A stretch of DNA of 64,000 nucleotides, from the NCBI GenBank assembly GCA_965262425.1, contig OZ253536.1:4688115-4752114 (forward strand). The letters run 5' to 3'. The position numbers were made by a program, and so were the translations under genes. How positions within the stretch are numbered: position 1 is the first letter of the stretch; the number at the start of each line of letters is the position of its first letter. The notes below the pieces were generated by a model. It saw only the letters and a list, made by a program, of their open reading frames with translations. It was not told where the DNA came from and searched no databases. This document shows, piece after piece, positions 3,952 to 64,000 of the stretch. Origin of the DNA: Terriglobia bacterium. GTDB taxonomy: Bacteria; Acidobacteriota; Terriglobia; 20CM-2-55-15.

Positions 3952-5300
3952 ACCAGTTCTCCCGCTGCCTCGGATTCCGCGACAGTCTCGGCGGCTTTTA
4001 GTTCCGGGTGGGTGCCCACCCGGAGTTCCCAGATCGAGATGATCGGGATGAACTTGCAGAATAAAATGAAGAGCAGTGCGATGGCGGCGAACGTTGCCGC
4101 CATGATCGTCAACTCCGGCCACTCCGGAGTGTAGGTTCCCCAAGAATAGGGCAGTTGTTTGTAAGACAGCGACGGAATCACGATCAGGAAACGCTCCAGC
4201 CACATGCCGACGACGATACCAATCGAGGCGATGACGGTTCCGGTAATCGTCCGGAGCCTCCGAACGCCCAGTATCACGATGGGGATTACGAAGTTTAGGG
4301 CGACCATCGTCCAGAAAAACGGCGCGTACTCGCCCGTCTGCAGTGCCCCAAAAATCCCCTGCTCGTGGGACTCGTTCCCGTACCAGACCACCAGCCGCTC
4401 GTTGAAAACGAAGTACATCCAGAGCAGGCTCATCGTCGCCATTAGCTTTCCGAGGTTCTGGAAGTGAATGAGCTTCAGGTACTCTTCCAGGTGCAGCAGC
4501 CTGCGGATCAACGCCATTGCAATGATGAGGGCCGCGATCCCGCTAAAGATGGCGCCGGTCACGAAGTAGGGGCCGAAGATCGTCGAGTGCCATCCTGGCA
4601 CGACCGCCATGGAGAAATCGAAAGAGACGACCGTGTGCACCGATACCGCAATCGGAAGGATGGCGATTGCCATGATGTGCATGGCGGCTTCCAGGCGGTG
4701 CCACTGTTTGGGAGTTCCCTGCCAGCCCAGGCTCAACAGACCGTAGATCTTGCTTCGCAGTCCCGTCGTCCGGTCCCTGATGAGTGCGAAGTCGGGAATC
4801 ATCGGCAGCGCCAGAAACAGAAGACTCGCCAGCAGGTAAGTCGAGATGGCAAAGAAGTCCCACACCAACGGCGATCTGAAGTTTGGCCACAGTCCCCGCT
4901 CGCTGGGGTACGGGATCAAAAAGAAGAAAAGCCAGACGCGGCCCAGGTGGATGAGTGGGAACATCCCGCCGATCATCAGGGCAAACGCGGTGATGGCCTC
5001 GGCCGCGCGCGTAACCGGCCGCCTCCACGTTGCGTTGCACAGTCTCAGGATGGCGGAGATCAGCGTGCCGGCATGGCTGATTCCGATCCAGAAGACGAAG
5101 TTGACGAGATAGAATCCCCAGAAGACCGGCGAGTTGATGCCTGCAACACCGATTCCCGTGTAAACCTGATAAGCCCACGTGGCGAAGCCCACCAGGACGA
5201 TGGAACCGAAAAATGCGACCGCCACGTAAAACTTCGCGGACGTGTGAAGCAAAGGATGGAGGAGATCCTCGGTCAGCTTCTTATCGGTTTTCGGATTCAT
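3948..5300 (-). CDS. actC: ACIII subunit ActC (NrfD/PsrC-family polytopic membrane quinol-interacting subunit)
   Basis: 450 aa with about 10 TM helices and NrfD-like composition. It lies immediately downstream of the FeS and Mo-like subunits. Confidence 0.7.
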   Translation of the reverse strand: MNPKTDKKLTEDLLHPLLHTSAKFYVAVAFFGSIVLVGFATWAYQVYTGIGVAGINSPVFWGFYLVNFVFWIGISHAGTLISAILRLCNATWRRPVTRAAEAITAFALMIGGMFPLIHLGRVWLFFFLIPYPSERGLWPNFRSPLVWDFFAISTYLLASLLFLALPMIPDFALIRDRTTGLRSKIYGLLSLGWQGTPKQWHRLEAAMHIMAIAILPIAVSVHTVVSFDFSMAVVPGWHSTIFGPYFVTGAIFSGIAALIIAMALIRRLLHLEEYLKLIHFQNLGKLMATMSLLWMYFVFNERLVVWYGNESHEQGIFGALQTGEYAPFFWTMVALNFVIPIVILGVRRLRTITGTVIASIGIVVGMWLERFLIVIPSLSYKQLPYSWGTYTPEWPELTIMAATFAAIALLFILFCKFIPIISIWELRVGTHPELKAAETVAESEAAGELV

Positions 5301-6022: not shown

Positions 6023-8257
6023 CTACCTCGAGTGCTCCGAGGGTTCCCTCAAAGCTCCTCCATACAAAATAAGTCCACCCTCTCCTTCGACCTTTTCCAC
6101 ACGGACGCGCGTTGCAGCCCACGCCAGCGCGCCGGTTTCCGGCTCTACAACCGGAGCAAGGATGCGGATCGGATTGGCGCCGCGCCCACTCGCGTACCGG
6201 GTGAAGGTCTCGTGCCCCTGACCGACCGGCATCGCAATGACATCGGGTGCGATCGCGGGTGACACGAAGGCGGGCGCTCGGACCGCGCCGTGTGCGGAGG
6301 TGACCTCGACCAGGTCGCCCTGAACGATTCCGAATCCGCCTGCCGTTTTCGGATTGATTTCAACCCAACTGCACCACATTGCCGATGACAGGACGTCCGG
6401 GAGTTCCTGGAGCCAGGGCAGATGGGCGAGCGATCCATCCAGGAAGGACTGCGAAATGAAGGGTAGAAAATGATACGGATAGTCGCCCGCGTCTCCGTCG
6501 AATTGCGCTTCCTCGAAAGCCGCGGCGCCTCGGTTCGACGTTTGGTCATCGGCCGCCTGGGCCGAGGCCTCGCTCCATATACCACCTTGAGCCTGGGCCA
6601 GCGTCCAGTTGTCGGTTGATTCGTCCGCGGCCGGCAAGGCTTCAAAAGCCAACTGCAACGCTTCCCGGTAAGTCTGCCATGGAAGTGCGGGGTCGAGCGG
6701 CGTGGCCAGGCTTCGTCCCGCTTCAAGCAGGACGTCGGGCATGCCCCGCGTATCGTGAAGCGGGCGCATGGCCGGTGGGGCGACACTTCGCACCGCCATC
6801 GCCGTTCCGGACTCGGGCTCGGAGTCGACCCAGGACTCGAGGAAAGAATGATCGGGTAGAATCAGGTCCGCCAGGTTGCTCGTCTCGTCGATAAACTGAC
6901 CAAAGCTGGCGATGTACGGGATGCTCGACAATGCCTCCATGACACCCCATGCCGGCGGCGCTCCAAAGACCGGGTTGGTGTCGTTCAACAAGAGGACCTC
7001 GATCGGCGATCCGGTGCCGTCACGGATGTCGGAGGCAATTTCTCGGAGTGAACGTCTCGAACTGTTGTCGGAACCTTCCGGGCGGGGCGTGAAGAAGATC
7101 CCGCCCGGTGTCCCGACGCTTCCGCCGAGCGCATTCAGCGCATTCACTGCCAGGGCGTGGAACAGACCGTTGGTCTGTGCCAGCGGCGGCCCGCCGATCA
7201 AGGCGATGGCGGGTCCGTTCTCGGCAAACTCTCGACCCAACCGCCGGACCTTCCGGGCATCGACTCCGGTCAGTCGCTCCACCTCTTCGGGGGTGTAGGC
7301 GGGGAGGCCGTCGGACCAGCCTTCGATCAACAGGCCGGCGCGGCCGGCATCTTCCGCCGAGGCGAATCCGGTATCCATGATGACGTGGGCCAGGCCCAAA
7401 GCCAGAACGCCCTCGGAACCGGGACGCGCCGGAACCCACTCGTCGGCGTTCGCTCCTGTCTGAGACATTCGCGACTCAACCTGGACGAACTTCGCCCGGA
7501 CTCCGGGCCGGCCCTTCCGCATCTCGCCATATGCAACGTTTTGAGAGACCGGAGAGTTCCAGGTTCCGAGAAAGTCCGCGCCGAACCCGATGACATAATT
7601 CGATCGTGCCAGGTCCGGGGTCGGGAGTTGACTGAACCCGTAGCTTGCCAGGTTTGCGCGACGAAGTACGTCCTCACCGAAGACTTCGAACGCTATCGGC
7701 GGTGGAGCGCCGAACCGATCGAGGAACCGATCCACGAGCCTTCCCCGCTGTCCACTGAGGGGACGGGTCAGGAATGCCAGCGCGTTCTGGTTGCCCGCTG
7801 CGGCGAGACCGTCCAACTGAGATACCAGTTCGGCTTGCGCTTCTTCCCACGTGATGGGGGCGAACTGTCCGGACCCACGCTCACCGGACCGTTTGAGCGG
7901 CCCGGTAATGCGATCCGGGTGGTATGTCACCTGAATGGCCGCCTGACCGCGCACGCAGAGTTTTCCCTGGCTGACCGGGTGTTCCGGGTTGCCTTCCAGT
8001 TTCTTGACCAGCCCCTTGGTGACGACGCCGGCCTGGCCGTTTCGGACGACTTCGACATCCCCTTCCATGACGCGGACGGTCAGGCCGCATCCAGCGGAAC
8101 AAAGCGGGCAGATACTGGGTTTCCAGGCCGAGATGCCCGGCACGAGATACTCGTCAGGAAGGAACCGAATCAGCTCGTTTTCCGGGTTTCCGCAACTGGC
8201 AAGTGTGGCGGTCGCGCCGGTGGCCGCGGTGATTTGAACGAATTTACGACGATCCAT
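6023..8257 (-). CDS. actB: ACIII subunit ActB1 (molybdopterin-oxidoreductase-like large subunit with Tat signal)
   Basis: MDRRKFVQITAATGATATLASCG twin-arginine signal with the ATG at 8257 preceded by GGAG. The fold is a MopB-family (molybdopterin oxidoreductase large subunit) fold. In most ACIII this is fused to the FeS domain as one ActB; here it is split. Confidence 0.75.
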   Translation of the reverse strand: MDRRKFVQITAATGATATLASCGNPENELIRFLPDEYLVPGISAWKPSICPLCSAGCGLTVRVMEGDVEVVRNGQAGVVTKGLVKKLEGNPEHPVSQGKLCVRGQAAIQVTYHPDRITGPLKRSGERGSGQFAPITWEEAQAELVSQLDGLAAAGNQNALAFLTRPLSGQRGRLVDRFLDRFGAPPPIAFEVFGEDVLRRANLASYGFSQLPTPDLARSNYVIGFGADFLGTWNSPVSQNVAYGEMRKGRPGVRAKFVQVESRMSQTGANADEWVPARPGSEGVLALGLAHVIMDTGFASAEDAGRAGLLIEGWSDGLPAYTPEEVERLTGVDARKVRRLGREFAENGPAIALIGGPPLAQTNGLFHALAVNALNALGGSVGTPGGIFFTPRPEGSDNSSRRSLREIASDIRDGTGSPIEVLLLNDTNPVFGAPPAWGVMEALSSIPYIASFGQFIDETSNLADLILPDHSFLESWVDSEPESGTAMAVRSVAPPAMRPLHDTRGMPDVLLEAGRSLATPLDPALPWQTYREALQLAFEALPAADESTDNWTLAQAQGGIWSEASAQAADDQTSNRGAAAFEEAQFDGDAGDYPYHFLPFISQSFLDGSLAHLPWLQELPDVLSSAMWCSWVEINPKTAGGFGIVQGDLVEVTSAHGAVRAPAFVSPAIAPDVIAMPVGQGHETFTRYASGRGANPIRILAPVVEPETGALAWAATRVRVEKVEGEGGLILYGGALREPSEHSR

Positions 8258-20690: not shown

Positions 20691-20895
20691 TCTTAAGTGT
20701 TGAAGAGTTCGCCTGCGTCCAGTGCCGGCTCTTGTTAGACGATGCCAGCTGCGGCGCTTACCGTTACCCCGATTGGACTCCAGGCCTCCGCAACTCGTGC
20801 GCGGTACTGAGCAACATGTGGCGCGGTCTGGAGTCTGTCCTCGGGGAGGAAGCATGAGTCCAGCGCTGGCTCTATCCTCGGTGGGTGTCTAAGGG

Positions 20896-21200
20896 GTGTT
20901 GTCTTATACAGTCACCCAGCGGCGCGAAGAACTCAGCATCCGAATGGCCCTGGGTGCCTCCCCGGGATCGGTGCGCTGGTTCGTTGTAGGTAGCGGAATG
21001 CGGCTTGTCGTGCTTGGTGTGTTCGCCGGCGCAGTGGGAGCCTACTTGTCGTCACGTTTCTTATCGTCGGTGGTTTACGGCGTGGGTGTCACGGACGTCG
21101 CGACCTACGCCGGCGTCGCAGCATTGGTCGGCGGTGTTGCTCTGGTGTCCTGTGCTCTGCCGGCAGCATCTCGGATGGACCCTCTCGCCGGCCTGCGAAG
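20896..21200 (+). pseudogene. C-terminal fragment (about 100 aa, last TM helices) of an FtsX/ADOP-type permease. It has no N-terminal part, and its frame runs into the MITE.
   Basis: LSYTVTQRREELSIRMALGAS...CALPAASRMDPLAGLRR matches the conserved FtsX C-terminus (...QRTREIGIRMALGA...PARRAARVDP..). The upstream 280 bp is non-coding. The ORF continues to 21552 only by reading through repeat copy A. Confidence 0.6.
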
Positions 21201-21202
21201 GA

Positions 21203-21368
21203 CTAGGAGCCTGCGCGGCAGAAGGGATCGTAGCGAGAAAGTGGAGAATCGAGGTCAGATTTTCTCGATTTTGAGGCGAATAGTGGTTCTATTCAACGAA
21301 AAATCGGGGGAATATGACCGATTACACCGCTTTCGCAGTAGATCTCTTCTGCCGCGCAGGCTCCTAGG
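21203..21368 (+). mobile_element. MITE-like repeat family 1, copy A. About 166 bp with a perfect 22-bp TIR CTAGGAGCCTGCGCGGCAGAAG and a possible GAAGGA target-site duplication.
   Basis: Near-identical copies occur at 31470-31632, 33434-33598 and, inverted, at 50203-50368. The flanks read gaagga|CTAGGAGCC...GGCTCCTAG|gaagga. Confidence 0.7.
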
Positions 21369-31469: not shown

Positions 31470-31632
31470 CTAGGAGCCTGCGCGGCAGAAGGGATCGTAG
31501 CGAGAAAGTGGAGAATCGAGGCCAGATTTTCTCGTTTTGAGGCGAATAGTGGTTCTATTCAACGAAAAATCGGGGAAATATGGACCGATTATACCGCTTT
31601 CGCAGTAGATCTCTTCTGCCGCGCAGGCTCCT
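31470..31632 (+). mobile_element. MITE-like repeat family 1, copy B
   Basis: Same TIR and internal sequence as copy A, with a few substitutions. It lies upstream of the gamma-CA-like gene and downstream of acnA. Confidence 0.7.
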
Positions 31633-32190: not shown

Positions 32191-33437
32191 TCAAATTGGT
32201 TCGTGGTACCTACGACATCCTCCCGCCCGACATCCATATCTGGCACGCCATCGAGGCGGAAATGAGGGCTGTGTTCGAATCGTACTCGTTTAACGAGATC
32301 CGTACCCCAATCTTCGAGTCGACCGAACTGTTCGTCCGGGGAGTCGGGGAAGAAACCGATATCGTTTCGAAAGAGATGTACACGTTCAAGGACAAGGACG
32401 AGAAGACCTCTTTGACTCTCAGGCCCGAGGGAACAGCGCCAGTTGTCCGCTCCTACATTGAACACCATCTTTCTGATGAATCCAGGATGATCAAGCTCTA
32501 CTACATCGGTGCGATGTTCCGTCGGGAACGACCCCAGAGGGGCCGTTTCCGGCAGTTTTATCAGGCCGGAGTGGAGGTTCTTTCTCCCAACGACAACCCC
32601 GCCATCGAGGCGGAGGTTGTCGAAATGCTCATGCTGCTGTTCGAGCGGCTGGAAGTTTCGTCGCTGGACCTGGCTGTGAATTCGATCGGGTGCCGGGAAT
32701 GTCGGCCCTCATACATCGAGAAGCTGCGGAGCGAAATCCGCGGGCGCCGTGAAGGTTTGTGTGAGGACTGTCGCAACCGGGGTGAGAAGAATCCACTGCG
32801 TGTCTTCGACTGCAAAGTGAAATCCTGCCAGGCGCTGATAGGGGAGCTGCCGACGATTACCGACAACCTCTGTCAGGAGTGCAGGGAGCACTTCTCCGGA
32901 TTTCGCGCGTACCTGGATGAAAGAGAGATCCCGTACCGGGTGGAGCCCCGGCTCGTCCGAGGCCTGGACTATTACATGCGAACGACGTTCGAGATACTTT
33001 CTTCCAGCCTGGGGGCTCAGGACACTCTGGTGGGAGGCGGCCGCTACGATGGCCTCAGCGAAGACCTGGGCGGTCCCCCGACTAACGGGTTTGGTTTCGC
33101 GATGGGGCTTGAGCGGTTGATCCTGTCGATTCCGGAGCCCGAAAAGCTGGCGCCGGGACCCGGCCCGGCCTATTTCCTGGCGACAATGGGCGAGGACGCA
33201 TTCCGGTACGCCACGCTTCTGGCACGCAAATTGCGAAAGGCAGGCTGTTCGGTCTATCTGGATTTCGCCGGGCGCAGCCTCAAGAGCCAGATGAGATTGG
33301 CAGGGAAGCTCGGTGCAGCTCAAGTTGTCATGATAGGTGAAAACGAGATCAAGTCCGGGACCCTCATCGTTCGGGACATGAACACCCGGGAGCAAAGGGA
33401 GTTGAGCGAGTCTGAACTGATGGAGACGGGCTGCTAG
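32187..33437 (+). CDS. hisS: Histidine--tRNA ligase
   Basis: 416 aa with class II aaRS motifs and an HisRS-specific N-terminus MIKLVRGTYDILP. Confidence 0.9.
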   Translation: MIKLVRGTYDILPPDIHIWHAIEAEMRAVFESYSFNEIRTPIFESTELFVRGVGEETDIVSKEMYTFKDKDEKTSLTLRPEGTAPVVRSYIEHHLSDESRMIKLYYIGAMFRRERPQRGRFRQFYQAGVEVLSPNDNPAIEAEVVEMLMLLFERLEVSSLDLAVNSIGCRECRPSYIEKLRSEIRGRREGLCEDCRNRGEKNPLRVFDCKVKSCQALIGELPTITDNLCQECREHFSGFRAYLDEREIPYRVEPRLVRGLDYYMRTTFEILSSSLGAQDTLVGGGRYDGLSEDLGGPPTNGFGFAMGLERLILSIPEPEKLAPGPGPAYFLATMGEDAFRYATLLARKLRKAGCSVYLDFAGRSLKSQMRLAGKLGAAQVVMIGENEIKSGTLIVRDMNTREQRELSESELMETGC

Positions 33438-33598
33438 GAGTCTGCGCGGGAGAAGGGATCGTGGCGAGAAAGTGGAGAATCGAGGCCAGATTTTCTCGAT
33501 TTTGAGGCGAATAGTGGTTCTATTCAACGAAAAATCGGGGAAACATGGACCGATTATGCCGCTTTCGCAGTAGATTCCTTCTGCCGCGCAGGCTCCTA
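33434..33598 (+). mobile_element. MITE-like repeat family 1, copy C (the TIR begins inside the hisS stop codon)
   Basis: ctaggagtctgcgcgggagaag...cttctgccgcgcaggctcct. The TAG of hisS is the CTAG of the TIR. Confidence 0.7.
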
Positions 33599-35391: not shown

Positions 35392-35487
35392 TCTTTTCAA
35401 CACGAAGACACGAAGTCACAAACGAAAGTTGAATTTCATTAAGCCTGATTCCTTCTTCGTGCCCTTCGTGCCTTCGTGTTGAAAAGA
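35392..35487. repeat. Palindromic extragenic element, family CGAAGGCACGAAG (copy 2)
   Basis: tcttttcaacacgaagacacgaag ... cttcttcgtgcccttcgtgccttcgtgttgaaaaga. It lies immediately 3' of aspS. Confidence 0.6.
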
Positions 35488-38742: not shown

Positions 38743-38993
38743 AATGACCGTCTCCTGACCTGCATTCAGAGCACATCGCTTGCCATGGTGTGCGTCGGGG
38801 TTTTTCGTTCTCTTCGGAAGAACGCCTGACCCATCGCCGCCCCTGCCAGTACGTGTTTGGGCCGTTCAGGACGGGGCGTTTCGGCCGCCGCGTTGTGGAT
38901 GCCGACCGCATTGCCTGTGTTGGCGGAGACGCCGTTCGTCATTGTTTTGACGATCGAGACCCATCGGATGTCAGAAGGATGACGGAACGCTAA

Positions 38994-39204
38994 GGGCCCG
39001 CTCAAGAATAACGTCACATTTTGGCATCCCACCGTCGCGCCATCTTCGCGGACCGTCGCGCCATCTTCGCGGGACCGTCGCGCCATCTTCGGCCGCTCCT
39101 CAATCGCAGATGTCGGGCTATTTCTCCGGTCTGCTCAATCGGTCGCGACCGAATCTGACCGAAATCTGGGCGCCAATTCTGTGAAGTTGTTCTTGAGCGG
39201 ACCC
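38994..39204. mobile_element. MITE-like repeat family 2, copy 1. About 211 bp with an imperfect TIR GGGCCCGCTCAAGAATAACGTCACATTTTGGC / GCCAATTCTGTGAAGTTGTTCTTGAGCGGACCC, and it contains a 3x tandem 21-nt repeat.
   Basis: A second copy is at 57465-57633, with identical internal blocks (caatcgcagatg.cgggctatt.ctccggtctgctcaatcggtcgc.accgaatctgaccgaaatctgggcgccaattctgtgaagtt). Its gtcgcgccatcttcgcgg(g)acc unit is repeated 3x. Copy 2 carries only one related, degenerate unit, cccatcttcacgccaccttcggccgctcc. Confidence 0.65.
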
Positions 39205-39283
39205 TGGATGGAGCGGAAATGGCGTGCCTCGAGACTCCGGGCCCCGATTTGACACTGCCGACCCGTGGTCCTACCCTTGAACG

Positions 39284-50187: not shown

Positions 50188-50202
50188 TGGCTAAAAACCG
50201 TG

Positions 50203-50368
50203 CTAGGAGCCTGCGCGGCAGAAGAGATCTACTGCGAAAGCGGTATAATCGGTCCAGATTTCCCCGATTTTTCGTTAAATAGAACCACTATTCGCCTCAA
50301 AATCGAGAAAATCTGTCCTCGATTCTCCACTTTCTCGCTACGATCCCTTCTGCCGCGCAGGCTCCTAG
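50203..50368 (-). mobile_element. MITE-like repeat family 1, copy D (inverted relative to copies A-C)
   Basis: Both termini are the perfect TIR (ctaggagcctgcgcggcagaag ... cttctgccgcgcaggctcctag). Its internal sequence is the reverse complement of copies A-C. Confidence 0.7.
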
Positions 50369-57409: not shown

Positions 57410-57464
57410 GAGCCGCCTATTATTGCACAGCCTCCCAGGCGTTGCCGCCAGGGTTTCCGGGTAA

Positions 57465-57633
57465 GGGCCCACTCAAGAATAACTTCACATTTTGGCATCC
57501 CATCTTCACGCCACCTTCGGCCGCTCCTCAATCGCAGATGCCGGGCTATTCCTCCGGTCTGCTCAATCGGTCGCAACCGAATCTGACCGAAATCTGGGCG
57601 CCAATTCTGTGAAGTTATTCTTGAGTGGACCCT
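57465..57633. mobile_element. MITE-like repeat family 2, copy 2 (about 169 bp)
   Basis: gggcccactcaagaataacttcacattttggc ... gccaattctgtgaagttattcttgagtggaccc. Its internal block is shared with the copy at 38994-39204. Confidence 0.65.
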
Positions 57634-57709
57634 AAGGACGGCACGGTGCGATCTCAGGATTGATATTTACAGAACCCGGAACTACAATCCCAGCCAGGAG
57701 CATCCCAAC

Positions 57710-58081
57710 ATGAAGACGGCACCGTCGAAAGTTCGGCGCGCACTCTATCAGTTGCGACGCGAAATGCTGGATTACCTCCATCGTGGCGAGGCCGACACCG
57801 ACTTCTGCGGCCAGTGCCACCTCCCCCATCCTTCCGGCGATTATGAATCCTACGAATTTTGTCCCTGGTGCTGTCAGTCCGTAAACGGATGGGAGCCGAG
57901 GTCGGACGAGTCACGCCGGATCATTGAGCACCACTGGGTGACAACCGACGAGATCCAGTGTGGGGAGTGTGGTGGGGAATACGAGCAACCATCACGATAT
58001 CCATTTCAGTTCTGCCCGCATTGCGGCGCACCGTTTGCGGACCAGGATGAATTGATGATTGAGCTGCCCTTCCTGATTTAA
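57710..58081 (+). CDS. Hypothetical cytoplasmic Cys-rich protein with two zinc-ribbon-like CxxC pairs
   Basis: CGQC...CPWCC and CGEC...CPHC. No signal peptide. It is flanked by repeat family 2 (5') and palindromic family 3 (3'). Confidence 0.4.
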   Translation: MKTAPSKVRRALYQLRREMLDYLHRGEADTDFCGQCHLPHPSGDYESYEFCPWCCQSVNGWEPRSDESRRIIEHHWVTTDEIQCGECGGEYEQPSRYPFQFCPHCGAPFADQDELMIELPFLI

Positions 58082-58104
58082 CAAGTTCCCGGCTTGAAAC
58101 ATTC

Positions 58105-58191
58105 TCTTCAACACGAAGACACGAAGAACACGAAGAAGCAAAAAATAGAAACTTCGCGTGTTTTCGTGACCTTCGTGCCTTCGTGTTGAAA
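58105..58191. repeat. Palindromic extragenic element, family CGAAGGCACGAAG (copy 3)
   Basis: tcttcaacacgaagacacgaagaacacgaagaag ... cttcgcgtgttttcgtgaccttcgtgccttcgtgttgaaa. Confidence 0.6.
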
Positions 58192-58218
58192 TTTCGGCTG
58201 TTGGGTCCGCTACGGCTG

Positions 58219-58600
58219 CTATTCGTGCCGCAGCGCAATCATCGGGTCCACCCGCGCGGCTCTCCGTGCGGGAACGTAGCAGGCCAGCAGAGCCGAGGTG
58301 ACCAGCAGGGCGGTTGTTGCCGCAAGCACGTTCGGATCCAGCGCGGATGTCCCGTAGAGAAGAGAACCGACGAGGCGTCCCAGCGCGACCGAAGCTGCCA
58401 GCCCCAGGCCGATTCCCATCCCGGTCAGTGTGACTCCTTCTCCCACGACCATCTTCAGGATGTCACGCCTTGCGGCGCCTAACGCCATGTGGATTCCGAT
58501 TTCCCGCTGGCGCTGGCCGACGAAGAACGAAATCACACCGTAGATGCCCATCATTGCCAGGAGCAGGGCTGCAATACCCAGGCCTCCGAACGCCGCCGCG
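58219..58600 (-). pseudogene. C-terminal fragment (about 125 aa, TM2-TM4 of the last FtsX module) of an FtsX/ADOP-type permease
   Basis: ...FGGLGIAALLLAMMGIYGVISFFVGQRQREIGIHMALGA...LLACYVPARRAARVDPMIALRHE*. Upstream of aa 123 the ORF-track reading is unrelated sequence antisense to nrfA. Confidence 0.6.
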
Positions 58601-58616
58601 GACGCCGACTGACGCG

Positions 58617-59696
58617 GACCCGCGTTCGGTTGTCGCCCGGCAGAAGCTGGACGAAGATCCGCGACTTCGAACGATGTGGGCCGGTTACGCCTTTTCAGTC
58701 GACTTCCGGGAAGAACGGGGCCATGCCTACATGCTTCTGGATCAGACCCTGACCGAGAGACAGGCCGTGGCCCAGCAACCGGGCACCTGTATGCAGTGTC
58801 ACGCTTCGTTGTACGTGCCCTACCGAAAACTTGGTGATGGGGACCTCGTTCTTGGTTTCGAGCGGATGAACCAGATGTCGTATCAGGAAGCTCGGGAACT
58901 TGTGTCGCACCCCGTCTCCTGCATCGATTGCCATGATCCGGGAACCCTGCAGCTGCGCGTGACAAGGCCGGCGTTCATGGAGGGCATGGCGGCGCTGAAG
59001 GCCGCTGACGGCGTGGTCGACTATGACGTGAACGCCGACGCGACTCGGCAGGAGATGCGGAGCTATGTCTGCGGGCAGTGCCACGTCGAGTACTACTTCA
59101 AAGGCGAGGAAAAACGTCTCGTGTATCCCTGGGCGAACGGCTTGAAGGTCGAAAACATCATGGCGTACTACGATGAAACAGGTTTCAAAGACTGGACCCA
59201 TGAAGAGTCCGGAGCGCCGGTCCTCAAGGCCCAACATCCGGAATTTGAAATGTGGAATCAGGGGATCCACGCACGGTCCGGGGTCGCCTGTGCGGATTGC
59301 CACATGCCCTACATGCGTGAGGGTGCGATGAAGATCAGCGATCACCATGTTCGCAGTCCCGTGTTGAACATCAATCGTGCCTGCCAGACATGTCACAAGT
59401 GGCCCGAGGCGGAGCTTCTGGACCGTGTCGAGACAATCCAGACCCGTCTGTCCGGTGCGCGCGATCTCGCCATGAATGCATTGATGGACTTGATTGAAGA
59501 CATCCGTGCTGCGGGGGCGGAAGGCGCGTCCGATGCCGATCTGGTCCCAGCCCGGGATTTCCAGAGGCGGGCACAGTTCTATCTGGACTTTGTCGAAGCG
59601 GAAAACTCAACCGGGTTTCACGCGCCTCAGGAGGCAACCCGGATTCTCCTGGAGTCGATAGACTTCTCCCGAAAGGGCCAAATGTCCCTGAGATAA
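58617..59696 (+). pseudogene. nrfA: Pentaheme cytochrome c nitrite reductase NrfA homologue, 5'-truncated (no signal peptide; no nrfH)
   Basis: Five CxxCH motifs (CMQCH, CIDCH, CGQCH, CADCH, CQTCH) and NrfA motifs (DPRLRTMWAGYAF, VCGQCHVEYYF, EMWNQGIHARSGVACADCHMPY). The longest in-frame N-terminus (from 58470) has no hydrophobic signal. Confidence 0.7.
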
Positions 59697-59765
59697 GCGA
59701 CGTTGAAATGGCGTGGAACGACAGGTGGTGCGTGGTAACGTCCATCTCACACTTGTGAGGGAATC

Positions 59766-61400
59766 ATGAAGAGTGTGGTGCGAACCTTGTTCGGGTTGTT
59801 GCTGTTCGTTACGTACGTGTCGGGAGCGTCCGTGCAAAACGAGGGGGAGCACCCGAGGTTGATCCTTGTCCTCTCGATCGACCAGATGCGCTTCGACTAC
59901 CTGACGCGGTTCGACGACCTCTACACCGGAGGGCTGCGAACCCTTCTGGATCGTGGCGCCATCATGACTGACGCGAAGTTCCGCCACGCGGCTACCGAAA
60001 CCGGCCCCGGACACTCGACTCTGATATCGGGTCGCCATCCAAGCAGTTCTGGAATCATTGCCAACAGTTGGTGGGATCGACTGCTCGGCAAGGTCGTCAA
60101 TGTGGTCGACGATCCTTTCGAACGCCCGTTGGGCGGTGCCGGCCGGAGCGCTTCTCCAGTCAATTTTGATGGGTTTACGATAGGCGATGCGCTGAAGCAG
60201 AATAGTCCGCAATCGAAGGTTGTGGGGGTGTCGACAAAGGACCGTTCGGCGATCCTGATGGCTGGACGTCTGGGAGACGCCGCGTACTGGTTTGAGAGAG
60301 CCGAGGGAAACTTCATCACGAGTACCTACTACATGGACGAAGCTCCGGGATGGCTCGAGCGTTGGAACGGCAACCGAATGGCGGATTCGTATGCGGGGAC
60401 CGCTTGGACTCGTTTGTTGGGCGACGACTCGCTGTACTGGGAATATGCGGGCGAGGACGCGGTCGTCGGAGAGTGGACCGCCGAGGATACGGTGTTTCCG
60501 CATCGACTTCCCGGGAATCCGCCCGAACCGATTTATTACAACTATCTACGTCGATCCCCGTTTGCCGACGAAATGATATTGTCAGTCACCCTGGAGGCCG
60601 TCCGGGCGCACGACATCGGAGAAGATGAGTTCACCGACATCCTGGCGGTCAGTTTTTCCGGTACGGATCTGGTCGGACACGAGTTCGGTCCCGACAGCCA
60701 GGAATTGATGGACCAGCTTCTCAGGCTGGATGGGATTCTTGGAGAACTGTTCGCGGAGATTGACGGTGGCCCTGGATTGGATCGAACGCTTGTCGTGCTG
60801 ACGGCGGATCACGGAGTCGTACCGCTGGTCGAAGTCCTCGAGGCCGAGGGAGTGGATGCCCGGCGTGCAACACCGCAGGCATTTAGAAACGCTCTCGAAC
60901 GGGCTCTTGCCGATAAGTATCCCGGCGTCGAGGGTCTTATCGCCTACAGCACAGTCCGCGGTGTCTATCTGAATCGGGAACTGATTCGAGGCAGCGGGCT
61001 GGAAGTGGGAGCGGTTGAGGAAACGATCATCGAGGCGCTCCTGGCGACAGGGCTGGTCGCGACCGTCTACACCCGCGACCAGATGGTCAGTAACGACCCG
61101 GCGACGGATCCATACATCGATCTCTTCCGCAATTCGTTCGCATCGACCCGCAGTCCCGATCTGATGGTTCGTCACAACGAAAACGTCTATTTTGATTCTG
61201 ACCCCGGCGGTACAGGGCACGGCACCCCCTATGACTATGACCGCCACGTTCCGATTGTGTTCATGGGGGAGGGAATCGAACCAGGATGGTATTCCGAAGC
61301 TTGCGGGCCGGAGGACATCGCGCCGACACTGGCCTTGATTCTTGGTCTGGAATATCCGCGCGAGCCGGATTCACGTTTGTTGCTGGAAATACTGAAGTAG
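59766..61400 (+). CDS. Alkaline-phosphatase-superfamily nucleotide pyrophosphatase/phosphodiesterase (NPP)-type enzyme, secreted
   Basis: Signal peptide, LVLSIDQMRFDYL (NPP metal-ligand region) and ATETGPGHSTLISGRHPSSSGI (catalytic Thr region). Confidence 0.75.
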   Translation: MKSVVRTLFGLLLFVTYVSGASVQNEGEHPRLILVLSIDQMRFDYLTRFDDLYTGGLRTLLDRGAIMTDAKFRHAATETGPGHSTLISGRHPSSSGIIANSWWDRLLGKVVNVVDDPFERPLGGAGRSASPVNFDGFTIGDALKQNSPQSKVVGVSTKDRSAILMAGRLGDAAYWFERAEGNFITSTYYMDEAPGWLERWNGNRMADSYAGTAWTRLLGDDSLYWEYAGEDAVVGEWTAEDTVFPHRLPGNPPEPIYYNYLRRSPFADEMILSVTLEAVRAHDIGEDEFTDILAVSFSGTDLVGHEFGPDSQELMDQLLRLDGILGELFAEIDGGPGLDRTLVVLTADHGVVPLVEVLEAEGVDARRATPQAFRNALERALADKYPGVEGLIAYSTVRGVYLNRELIRGSGLEVGAVEETIIEALLATGLVATVYTRDQMVSNDPATDPYIDLFRNSFASTRSPDLMVRHNENVYFDSDPGGTGHGTPYDYDRHVPIVFMGEGIEPGWYSEACGPEDIAPTLALILGLEYPREPDSRLLLEILK

Positions 61401-61557
61401 TCTCTCCGTCCGACCCTTCACAAATGGCGATTCTCCCGCGGACCTTCATCGCGCCCCCCCATGCTTGACACTATGGCGTGTCACGACGTACACTGAATAA
61501 GTCGTGACGCGATGCATTGTGTCACGCGACAGTCCAGCGAAATGGAGAGAGTGACAC

Positions 61558-61944
61558 ATGAAACGCGATGAGATCGACAAACGCGATGAGATCGCCGCAC
61601 ACCTGCCGCTGACACCGGCATTGTTTCAGGTTTTGCTTGCCCTGGCCGACGGGGACAAGCACGGCTACGCCATCCTCAAAGAGGTCGGCGAACGGACCCG
61701 GGGCCGCGTCCGCCTCAGCACGGGAACGCTCTACGGGATCATCAAGCGTCTGCTCCATGACGAACTGATCGCGGAGCAGTCGCGACGTCCCTCGCGAGAC
61801 GACGAACGCCGGCGTTACTATCGTCTGACCCCGCTGGGCAGGAACGTCGCTTCGGCTGAGGCCGAGAGGATGGAAGAAATGATCGCCACCGCGCGCCTGA
61901 AGAAACTGATCCGTGCTCCGCAAACCGAAGGGAGCGTCGGATGA
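61558..61944 (+). CDS. PadR-family transcriptional regulator
   Basis: ...GDKHGYAILKEV...TGTLYGIIKRLLHDELIA...RRYYRLTPLGR winged-helix signature. Confidence 0.8.
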   Translation: MKRDEIDKRDEIAAHLPLTPALFQVLLALADGDKHGYAILKEVGERTRGRVRLSTGTLYGIIKRLLHDELIAEQSRRPSRDDERRRYYRLTPLGRNVASAEAERMEEMIATARLKKLIRAPQTEGSVG

Positions 61945-64000
61945 CCGGGGAGAAAAAGTCCCGGATCCGACGACTGTATCGGGCGTTGCTGCGGGCATTT
62001 CCATTCGACTTTCGCTGGGACTACGGACCGGAGATGGAAGATGTCTTCCTCGAACAGAGGCGGGATGCTGAGACACAGGGAGGGAAAGTGGCTCTCGTGC
62101 GATTGTGGTGGGAAACCTTTGTCGGAATAGTGCGAACCGCCCCCGGCGAACACTGGGAGATGCTTCGGCAGGATGCGGGTTACGCGCTCAAGACGATGTC
62201 GAAGAGACCTGGATTTGCCGCGGTTGCCGTCGTCACGCTGGCACTGGGAATTGGCGCTAACGTCGCCATCTTCAGTCTTGTCAACGGCATCCTGCTCGAG
62301 CCCCTGCCCTTCCAGGATGCGGATCGGATCGTTCAGATTTTCGAACAAAACCCGACCGAAGGCGTCGAGCGGGCCAGCGTCGCGCTTCCGAATTTCCTGG
62401 ATTGGAGATCTCAGAATAGCGTGTTCGAGGACATGGCCGTGTTCGACCGGACGGGCGTGACCTTTGCCGGTGCGGAACCGAGACGGCTTTCCGCTATCGT
62501 CGCGTCTTCGAGCTTTCTCCGGACACTGGGCGCGGTTCCGATCAAGGGACGGGACTTTCCCCGCGACCAGGATCTGCGAGCCGCGGACCGGGTTGTCCTG
62601 ATCGGCGAGCAGTATTGGGTGGCGGACATGGGGCGAGACCCATCCATTGCCGGTCGCACCATGATGCTGGACGGCGAAGCACATACCGTGATCGGGGTTT
62701 TCAGCATGGCCCTGAATGTCTTGCTGGACGACGTGGACGTGATCGTTGGGATGGCTATCGACTCGACCGGTGCGGACCGGTCCCAGCACGAATACAGTGC
62801 CATCGGGAAGCTTCGGTCCGGTGTTGCTCCCGACGAGGTCCGGGCGGAGTTGGAGACAATCAGTCTGCGCCTGGAACAGGCCTATCCGGAAACGAACCGG
62901 GGATGGCAGGTTTACACGGTTCCGATTGCCGAACGCATCTTTAACCCGGTACTGCGGGCCATCCTGCTACTGCTGACGCTCGGGTCCGGATTCGTTCTCC
63001 TGATCGGGTGCGCGAACGTCGCCAATCTGTTGTTGGCCCGTGCAACGAGCCGGGAACAGGAAGTGGCCGTTCGCATGGCCCTGGGAGCGGGAAGGGCCCG
63101 AATTGTACGCCAGTTCCTGACTGAGAGCGTCTTACTGGCTGTCTTGAGTGGGCTGGCGGGCATTCTGCTGGCCGCCTGGTCCCTGCCCGGACTGATTGCA
63201 CTGGTACCTGCCGAGGTGCCGCGGATCGCCAACGTTGTCCTCGACGGCTGGGCGCTACTCTATGCGATCGGTGTTTCCGTAATGACCGGCGTGTTGTTCG
63301 GCCTGGTCCCGGCCGTCCACAGCTCAAGACCCCAAATCAATGAAGCGTTGAAGGAAGGGGGCCGAACCTCGGCCGGCCGATCCCGTGCCCGCCTGCTCAA
63401 GAGCCTCGTTGTTTCGGAAGTGGCACTGGCATTCGTCCTCCTCGTCGCCGGTGGCTTGTCGATCCGCAGCTTTCAGCTGTTGACCGAGGTCGATCTCGGC
63501 TTTCGAACCGACAACCTCCTTACGGTCGATGTGGCGTTGCCGGAAAGCGACTACGACGATCCCGGTGACCGTGAAGTGTTCTACCGCAGTGTCGTGGACC
63601 GACTCAACTCCATCGCCGGCGTCCGATCGGCTGCCGCAGTGACGACCTTGCCGATGGGAGAGTCATCGTCCTGGAGCGAAATTCGCATCGAACCAGGGGA
63701 GCCGGTCGACGGCGGTCGGCCCACTTTCGCGGGCTATCTCATCGTGAGCCCGGACTATTTCCAGACCATGGGTCTGGGGTTCCGGCGAGGTCGGAGTTTC
63801 GGATCCCCGACGGGTGAGGGTCCGGTGGAAGTTGTGGTCAACGATGCCCTGGTTCGAGCTTTCTTCCCCGGCGAGGTCGATCCCATCGGGAAGCAGTTCC
63901 AGGCTATTCATGCAGCTCCGGACAGAACGCTGCAGGTTGTCGGCGTCGTGGGCGATGTGCCTTATTCCCGCATCGAAAACGGATCCCGGGCGGAAGTGTA
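61941..64000 (+). CDS. ADOP-type FtsX-family permease (MacB-like duplicated permease), partial and open at the window end
   Basis: Not in the ORF track because it has no stop within the window. I translated it codon by codon from the ATG at 61941, which overlaps the padR stop as ATGA. The frame is open for 686 codons and includes ...GFAAVAVVTLALGIGANVAIFSLVNGILL... and ...EQEVAVRMALGAGRARIVRQFL..., which are FtsX motifs. Confidence 0.8.
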   Translation, partial: MTGEKKSRIRRLYRALLRAFPFDFRWDYGPEMEDVFLEQRRDAETQGGKVALVRLWWETFVGIVRTAPGEHWEMLRQDAGYALKTMSKRPGFAAVAVVTLALGIGANVAIFSLVNGILLEPLPFQDADRIVQIFEQNPTEGVERASVALPNFLDWRSQNSVFEDMAVFDRTGVTFAGAEPRRLSAIVASSSFLRTLGAVPIKGRDFPRDQDLRAADRVVLIGEQYWVADMGRDPSIAGRTMMLDGEAHTVIGVFSMALNVLLDDVDVIVGMAIDSTGADRSQHEYSAIGKLRSGVAPDEVRAELETISLRLEQAYPETNRGWQVYTVPIAERIFNPVLRAILLLLTLGSGFVLLIGCANVANLLLARATSREQEVAVRMALGAGRARIVRQFLTESVLLAVLSGLAGILLAAWSLPGLIALVPAEVPRIANVVLDGWALLYAIGVSVMTGVLFGLVPAVHSSRPQINEALKEGGRTSAGRSRARLLKSLVVSEVALAFVLLVAGGLSIRSFQLLTEVDLGFRTDNLLTVDVALPESDYDDPGDREVFYRSVVDRLNSIAGVRSAAAVTTLPMGESSSWSEIRIEPGEPVDGGRPTFAGYLIVSPDYFQTMGLGFRRGRSFGSPTGEGPVEVVVNDALVRAFFPGEVDPIGKQFQAIHAAPDRTLQVVGVVGDVPYSRIENGSRAEV

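Follow-up and report, generated by a model that had tools for sequence, protein, structure and literature searches.

The locus of interest in the window (the whole stretch of DNA that was analysed, 64 kb) carries two gene remnants on opposite strands. On the minus strand lies the 3′ end of a gene for a duplicated FtsX permease of the ADOP family, and on the plus strand lies an nrfA gene that has lost its 5′ end and belongs to the clade with CxxCH at haem 1. The two remnants meet at a deletion junction. A hairpin-forming palindrome and a MITE-like insertion are found on the ADOP side. The features and their coordinates are collected in Table 1.

Table 1. Features of the locus, in window coordinates.
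Feature	Position	Strand	Description
MITE-like insertion, ~166 bp	57467..57632		57-nt imperfect terminal inverted repeats, 57464-57520 and 57577-57633
Hairpin-forming palindrome, 84 bp, CACGAAG(A/G) units	58107..58190		28-nt arms, 89% complementary; outside the deletion event
ADOP-family duplicated FtsX permease gene, 3′ remnant	58219..58601	-	Last 127 codons and stop; pseudogene fragment
Deletion junction	58595..58601		Breakpoint placed at 58601/58602; three-way alignment with the L001 and L003 sides
5′-truncated nrfA, CxxCH-haem-1 clade, pseudogene	58602..59696	+	Codons 97-460 and stop; PF02335 E=6.6e-127

The two gene remnants

The ADOP remnant spans the last three predicted TM helices, which agrees with an earlier note on this DNA that described a minus-strand 3′ fragment of an FtsX permease. 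The ORF containing the remnant, 58219-58965 on the minus strand, matches Pfam FtsX (E=2.5e-16) and the NCBIfam ADOP family TIGR03434 (E=4.8e-49). The TIGR03434 match covers only profile positions 673-803 of 803, and its score of 167 bits lies below the family cut-off of 622. The full architecture of ~800 aa, in which MacB_PCD-FtsX is duplicated, is not present in the window stub; the homologue in an intact relative, contig L001, has MacB_PCD-FtsX twice. The stub corresponds, with ~93% DNA identity, to L001 4220-4602, the 3′-terminal part of an intact gene for an 805-aa ADOP, and its C-terminal 127 residues are ~97% identical to the end of that protein.

A lone FtsX/ADOP C-terminal fragment of ~105 aa is also found at window 20881-21195 (+). 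It matches Pfam FtsX (E=3.7e-9) and shows 36% identity to ADOP residues 696-802. No permease body lies upstream of it, and a repeat copy, 21205-21367, follows directly. This fragment may be a second truncated permease remnant.

The match of the plus-strand ORF 58470-59696 to Pfam Cytochrom_C552 (PF02335) starts at ORF residue 56 and, at 424.5 bits, passes the cut-off of 24.1. Against the NCBIfam equivalog NF008339 the score is 289.6, with a cut-off of 595; for a protein that is truncated and belongs to the CxxCH clade, a lower score is to be expected. The five haem motifs are CMQCH, CIDCH, CGQCH, CADCH, and CQTCH. The first is of the CxxCH form, and the earlier count of five such motifs with CMQCH as haem 1 is borne out. 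The KAQH active-site/Ca motif is kept in the segment VLKAQHPEFEMW, which follows CGQCH and precedes CADCH (haem sites 3 and 4) and aligns with the corresponding segment of 1FS9 and 2VR0. The stub itself aligns to the solved NrfA structures 1FS9, 2VR0, and 1GU6. In protein searches, it shows 97% amino-acid identity to an intact 460-aa NrfA, P0001, and ~100% identity to a 340-aa gene call, P0002; it shares 73–79% identity with hundreds of soil NrfA sequences. NrfAs whose first haem motif is CxxCH are a known clade and dominate among the nrfA reads from soil (Saghai et al. 2023, PMC10716430). Both homologies in the window, to NrfA and to ADOP, are real and far above chance.

Missing from the NrfA stub are the N-terminal 96 residues of 460, counted against the intact L001 allele; the earlier note had put the loss at ~50 residues. 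The lost region includes the membrane anchor, FRLIILASVVTLVVSVAGLSLLF, and the conserved FPLQYDAY segment, and it aligns, the conserved FPxQYD segment included, to structured parts of solved NrfA. An in-frame upstream start with a signal peptide was looked for in the nrfA frame, and none was found. The frame has a stop at 58431, the only possible in-frame starts are TTG 58470, TTG 58554, and ATG 58674, and no hydrophobic segment follows any of the three. Upstream of 58602, the frame reads antisense ADOP sequence, whose Kyte-Doolittle(15) value peaks at 0.17, versus 2.85 for the lost anchor in L001. The N-terminal export signal or membrane anchor that NrfA requires is lacking in the stub, as is an adjacent gene for a redox partner (nrfH or nrfBCD). 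By tblastn, no match to nrfH, nor to a second nrfA, is present anywhere in the 64-kb window. The earlier note was right about both the missing signal peptide and the missing nrfH. Scans for promoter and terminator consensus sequences around the junction gave nothing exceeding shuffle expectation.

The deletion and its junction

The contig of P0001, L001, is ~92–97% identical to the window at the DNA level and has the same neighbours: GSHPx, DUF885(-), a 123-aa gene(+), Phosphodiest(+), PadR(+), and a downstream ADOP(+). The 123-aa gene and Phosphodiest are separated in L001 by the 805-aa ADOP(-), a 197-bp intergenic region, nrfH (150 aa, with four CxxCH), and nrfA (460 aa). Alignment by blastn pairs window 57653-58601 with L001 3645-4602 on the left side, and window 58595-64000 with L001 7581-12966 on the right side, both collinear and on the same strand. 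At the locus, the window differs from L001 by one collinear deletion, L001 4603-7587 (2,985 bp). It took away ADOP codons 1 to ~678, the 197-bp region between the divergent genes, the whole of nrfH, and nrfA codons 1-96. The two genes are cut at one common point, as had been claimed, and alignment with the intact loci places the breakpoint at 58601/58602.

A second reference, L003, is the complete 6.41-Mb Terriglobia MAG chromosome OZ252023.1, the closest genome in a GTDB genome scan that lacked the window's own genome. Its nrfHA is intact. Gene order and orientation on either side of the junction are collinear with the intact loci of both L001 and L003, and the right-hand breakpoint is the same against L003 as against L001. 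What had been called a rearrangement is one simple deletion of 2,985 bp. L003 keeps the N-terminal ~97 codons of the same ADOP gene, a part complementary to the window's ADOP remnant; therefore, the ancestor had the whole ADOP gene. Across the collected NrfA loci, nrfH lies directly upstream of nrfA in 81 of 82, and the sole exception, contig L002, carries the deletion. As judged from these sequence comparisons, the deletion is the derived state. The intact references are 92–97% identical relatives and not the direct ancestor, whose bases at the breakpoints may have differed from theirs.

The junction 31-mer is identical in L002 and in L083–L089, that is, in 8 contigs from 8 separate assemblies, as follows: ERZ21829562, ERZ25068966, ERZ26167216, ERZ28763718 (a 6.35-Mb contig), ERZ25069191, GCA_047514405.1, ERZ23495140, and ERZ23495126. 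The contigs, retrieved via a protein cluster look-up, are 99.6–100% identical to the window. Among them are long-read contigs of high coverage (19x, 842 kb; 6.35 Mb) as well as scaffolds from short reads. An exact 28-nt junction scan of JGI metagenome contigs gave 0 matches. Metagenome assemblies can contain misjoins, and the intact L001 and the deleted L002 co-occur in one sample, ERZ21829562, so the junction could in principle be a chimeric or collapsed contig that joins two points of the intact locus. This alternative, raised in the earlier note, is refuted by the independent contigs: an assembly chimera is excluded because the identical junction occurs in 8 separate assemblies, long- and short-read. 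In addition, the flanking DNA of L001 and L002 differs by 3–8%, which marks them as different populations and not one locus assembled twice, and no repeat able to cause a collapse is present at the breakpoints. We regard an artefact as practically inconceivable. The deletion is real and is common to a whole population of soil Terriglobia (Acidobacteriota).

In a base-level three-way alignment, the left-side homology ends at 58601 and the right-side homology starts at 58599, with CGG at 58599-58601 common to both. This CGG is found in L001 at 4600-4602 and again at 7585-7587, and a single copy is left in the window. The longer sequence GCCGCGG (58595-58601) matches the nrfA side at 6 of its 7 positions, and the ancestral microhomology may have been 3–7 bp long. 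Microhomology of at least 3 bp occurs at 5.8% of random position pairs, which makes 3 bp weakly non-random (p ~0.06). The stubs abut, with no filler DNA, element remnant, or spacer at the junction; the ~20 bp that had been placed between them is absent, the ADOP side ending at 58601 and the nrfA side starting at 58602. A microhomology-mediated deletion should show a direct repeat at either end of the undeleted sequence, no filler where the ends meet, and flanks that stay collinear; all three are found here, the repeat being short. The ends were probably joined by illegitimate recombination, through replication slippage or end joining, and not by homologous recombination between repeats.

A sub-variant of this explanation is that the deletion was guided by a quasi-palindrome, in the manner of the Glickman-Ripley type. 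An imperfect 19-nt inverted repeat would have paired in ssDNA and aligned the CGG repeats, with slippage following. The arms in L001, 4587-4605 and 7597-7615, are complementary at 15 of 19 positions, 8 of them forming a perfect run, and they lie on or within 10 nt of the breakpoints; the scar sequence is now CCGAACGC-N28-GCGTTCGG. Of random position pairs with equal spacing, 2.5% reach such an inverted-repeat score. However, the observation was made post hoc, and the p values, 0.025 for the score and 0.056 for the exact run of 8 nt, are modest. A perfect stem of 8 bp adds negligible thermodynamic stability when the loop to be closed is ~3 kb, and the left arm has one further mismatch in the window lineage (C at 58597). 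We consider guidance of this kind unlikely, and hairpin-assisted slippage is a weak, post hoc lead on which we do not rely.

The course of events that we propose is as follows. The ancestral order would have been DUF885(-), a 123-aa zinc-ribbon-like gene(+), full ADOP(-), a divergent promoter region, nrfH(+), nrfA(+), a phosphodiesterase-family gene(+), and padR(+). A single 2,985-bp deletion took out the front of ADOP, the intergenic region, nrfH, and the first 96 codons of nrfA, with the ends joined at the 3-bp CGG microhomology and no DNA inserted. The outcome would be two non-functional stubs back to back, the nrfA stub lacking a promoter, an export signal, and NrfH as its electron donor. 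Haem attachment would no longer be possible, and the locus would no longer support nitrite ammonification. Taken as a whole, this explanation, in which one microhomology deletion in an ancestor with an intact ADOP-nrfH-nrfA locus produced two dead stubs, is in our judgment very likely correct.

Repeats and further variation

The palindrome has a predicted RNA fold of -46.5 kcal/mol (z=-4.1) and separates the 123-aa gene from the stop codon of the ADOP gene, the two genes converging. A second member of the family is located at 35401-35478. The two CACGAAG(A/G) palindromes make up a two-member family, both intergenic, and the copy at 58107 is placed like a terminator between converging genes. 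The palindrome is at the same site in the intact L001, where it has one extra 8-nt unit, and the count of these units differs between the window and L001.

The MITE has a further copy at 38991-39205. In L002, which is 99.5% identical to the window, an extra copy (L002 640-812) is inserted at the position that corresponds to window 51548, so that even near-identical strains are polymorphic for the insertion. A second family of ~165-bp repeats has copies at window 21205-21367, 31472-31632, 33429-33598, and 50202-50366, which are 92–96% identical to L001 864-1028. These repeats, of which the window has at least four copies, probably represent a further family of MITEs.

The earlier note attributed the junction to repeat-mediated rearrangement, that is, to recombination or transposition via the palindrome (its family 3) and/or the MITE (its family 2). 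Both elements are indeed less than 1 kb from the junction, and the distance of about 1 kb given for the MITE holds good (~970 bp). Polymorphic MITE insertions are found between close strains, and an independent ADOP deletion in L003 has one breakpoint inside the palindrome, which shows that the palindrome can accompany deletions at the locus. However, the palindrome does not bracket the junction as had been stated; it lies on one side only, ~410 bp away, and is intact and unmoved in the undeleted L001. The MITE site is empty in both L001 and L003, and the sequence between the MITE and the junction is collinear with both. The junction itself is free of repeat copies, terminal inverted repeats, target-site duplications, and filler, and the ends of the segment deleted from L001 carry no copy of the MITE or the palindrome. 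Order and orientation are kept on both sides, with nothing rearranged. A repeat at the breakpoint and an altered order or orientation, the marks of a deletion mediated by a transposable element or repeat, are both absent. A repeat-mediated origin is highly improbable, and the microhomology deletion remains the preferred explanation.

The deletion at L003 4990-5340 (OZ252023.1), shared by L090 and corresponding to window 58135-58601, is its own ~2.24 kb deletion in the same ADOP gene. One of its breakpoints lies inside the right arm of the CACGAAG palindrome, ~20 bp of filler is present, and nrfHA is kept in L003. At least two deletions have taken place at the locus, independent ones as their different breakpoints suggest, and the palindrome may promote other deletions here, of which L003/L090 would be a case. 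Three allelic states are found among the 92–97% identical relatives: a fully intact locus, a deletion of ADOP only, and a deletion of ADOP, nrfH, and the 5′ part of nrfA. The last of these is nearly clonal across at least 8 assemblies. A more far-reaching proposal is that deletions recur at ADOP-nrfHA, as a hotspot, across a species complex of Terriglobia that is widespread in soil, and that the loss of nitrite ammonification in the population of the window would be an adaptive, swept presence/absence polymorphism and not neutral decay; we hold this proposal to be unlikely.

Divergence around the locus is mosaic. The phosphodiesterase gene (window 59766-61400, L001 8749-10383) has a dS of 0.59 against L001, and its neighbours have values of ~0.07–0.13. 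Identity between the window and L003 is 97% on the right side of the junction and only ~92% on the left side; for L001, the two sides are reversed. This pattern suggests recombination among the L001, L003, and window populations. Two of the junction-bearing contigs show additional changes. In L085, the phosphodiesterase gene has a nonsense change, TGG>TGA, at the position of window 60353. In L087, the 123-aa gene shows CGA>TGA at the position of window 57755, and a highly divergent tract spans padR (61693-61924). These changes may represent further decay, recombination, or sequencing errors.

Age, function, and relation to known systems

Across 9 sequences, the nrfA stub is free of stops and frameshifts, and its dN/dS against L001 is 0.068, similar to or below that of the flanking intact genes. 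The nrfA changes specific to the window lineage, polarised with L001 and L003, number 14 synonymous and 3 non-synonymous, where the neutral expectation is roughly 3.4 non-synonymous changes per synonymous one. From the 14:3 ratio and the lack of stops, it follows that the deletion is recent; it would cover only the last small part of the window-lineage branch. Within the deletion-carrying population, there are 2 variable sites in the nrfA stub (1 non-synonymous) and 1 in the ADOP stub, a diversity too low for a relaxed-selection test.

The c-type cytochromes are matured, with haem attached, only after export to the periplasm, in a process that is Sec- and Ccm-dependent. The nrfA stub is regarded as a pseudogene because it has no export signal, no NrfH, and no native promoter. 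It would have lost its function, and no mature periplasmic multihaem enzyme would be made from it. The earlier note took the same view of maturation, which is supported by the absent export signal and nrfH, the last step following from established knowledge.

Could the truncated NrfA still be functional, for example as a protein translated from ATG 58674 or TTG 58470 that has taken on a new role in the cytoplasm or after export by another route? In the 9 sequences, the 364 codons of the remnant stay open and encode every haem motif, gene callers predict a 340-aa product, and the lineage-specific changes are mostly synonymous. However, a recent deletion explains the low dN/dS, and the population diversity is too low to show ongoing constraint. 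The stub also has no anchor or signal peptide, nrfH, or native promoter for a protein whose haem attachment needs periplasmic export, and the region that was lost corresponds to structured parts of the enzyme. We give a retained function almost no credence and prefer loss of function.

The locus matters chiefly for annotation and ecology. The 340-aa, five-haem ORF will be scored as a nitrite reductase by gene callers and in surveys that use nrfA as a marker, and such surveys would miscount it as DNRA potential. In the population concerned, known from at least 8 assemblies, the locus has been stripped of its nrfH, promoter, and export signal. Together, the intact and deleted nrfHA alleles provide a clean natural pair in close relatives among soil Acidobacteriota.

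Comparison with known systems places each part of the locus in a familiar class. The ADOP remnant matches the C-terminal end of the TIGR03434 profile. Compared with the members of that family, it is one sixth of the protein and lacks MacB_PCD, the first FtsX half, and its own start codon. In common with the NrfHA operon of the CxxCH-haem-1 clade (PMC10716430), the window copy has the Cytochrom_C552 match, five haem motifs with CMQCH first, and KAQH, but residues 1-96, the promoter region, and nrfH are absent from it. Its intact relatives belong to the CxxCH clade as ordinary members, and the window copy is the remnant of a member, not a working member. The event is an ordinary microhomology deletion that left two pseudogenes; it belongs to a well-known class, is of low novelty, and involves no new mechanism or system. 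Like the microhomology-mediated (illegitimate) deletions that make bacterial pseudogenes, it has a clean junction, a 3-bp repeat with one copy retained, and collinear flanks, the only extra here being the weakly significant imperfect inverted repeat at the two breakpoints.
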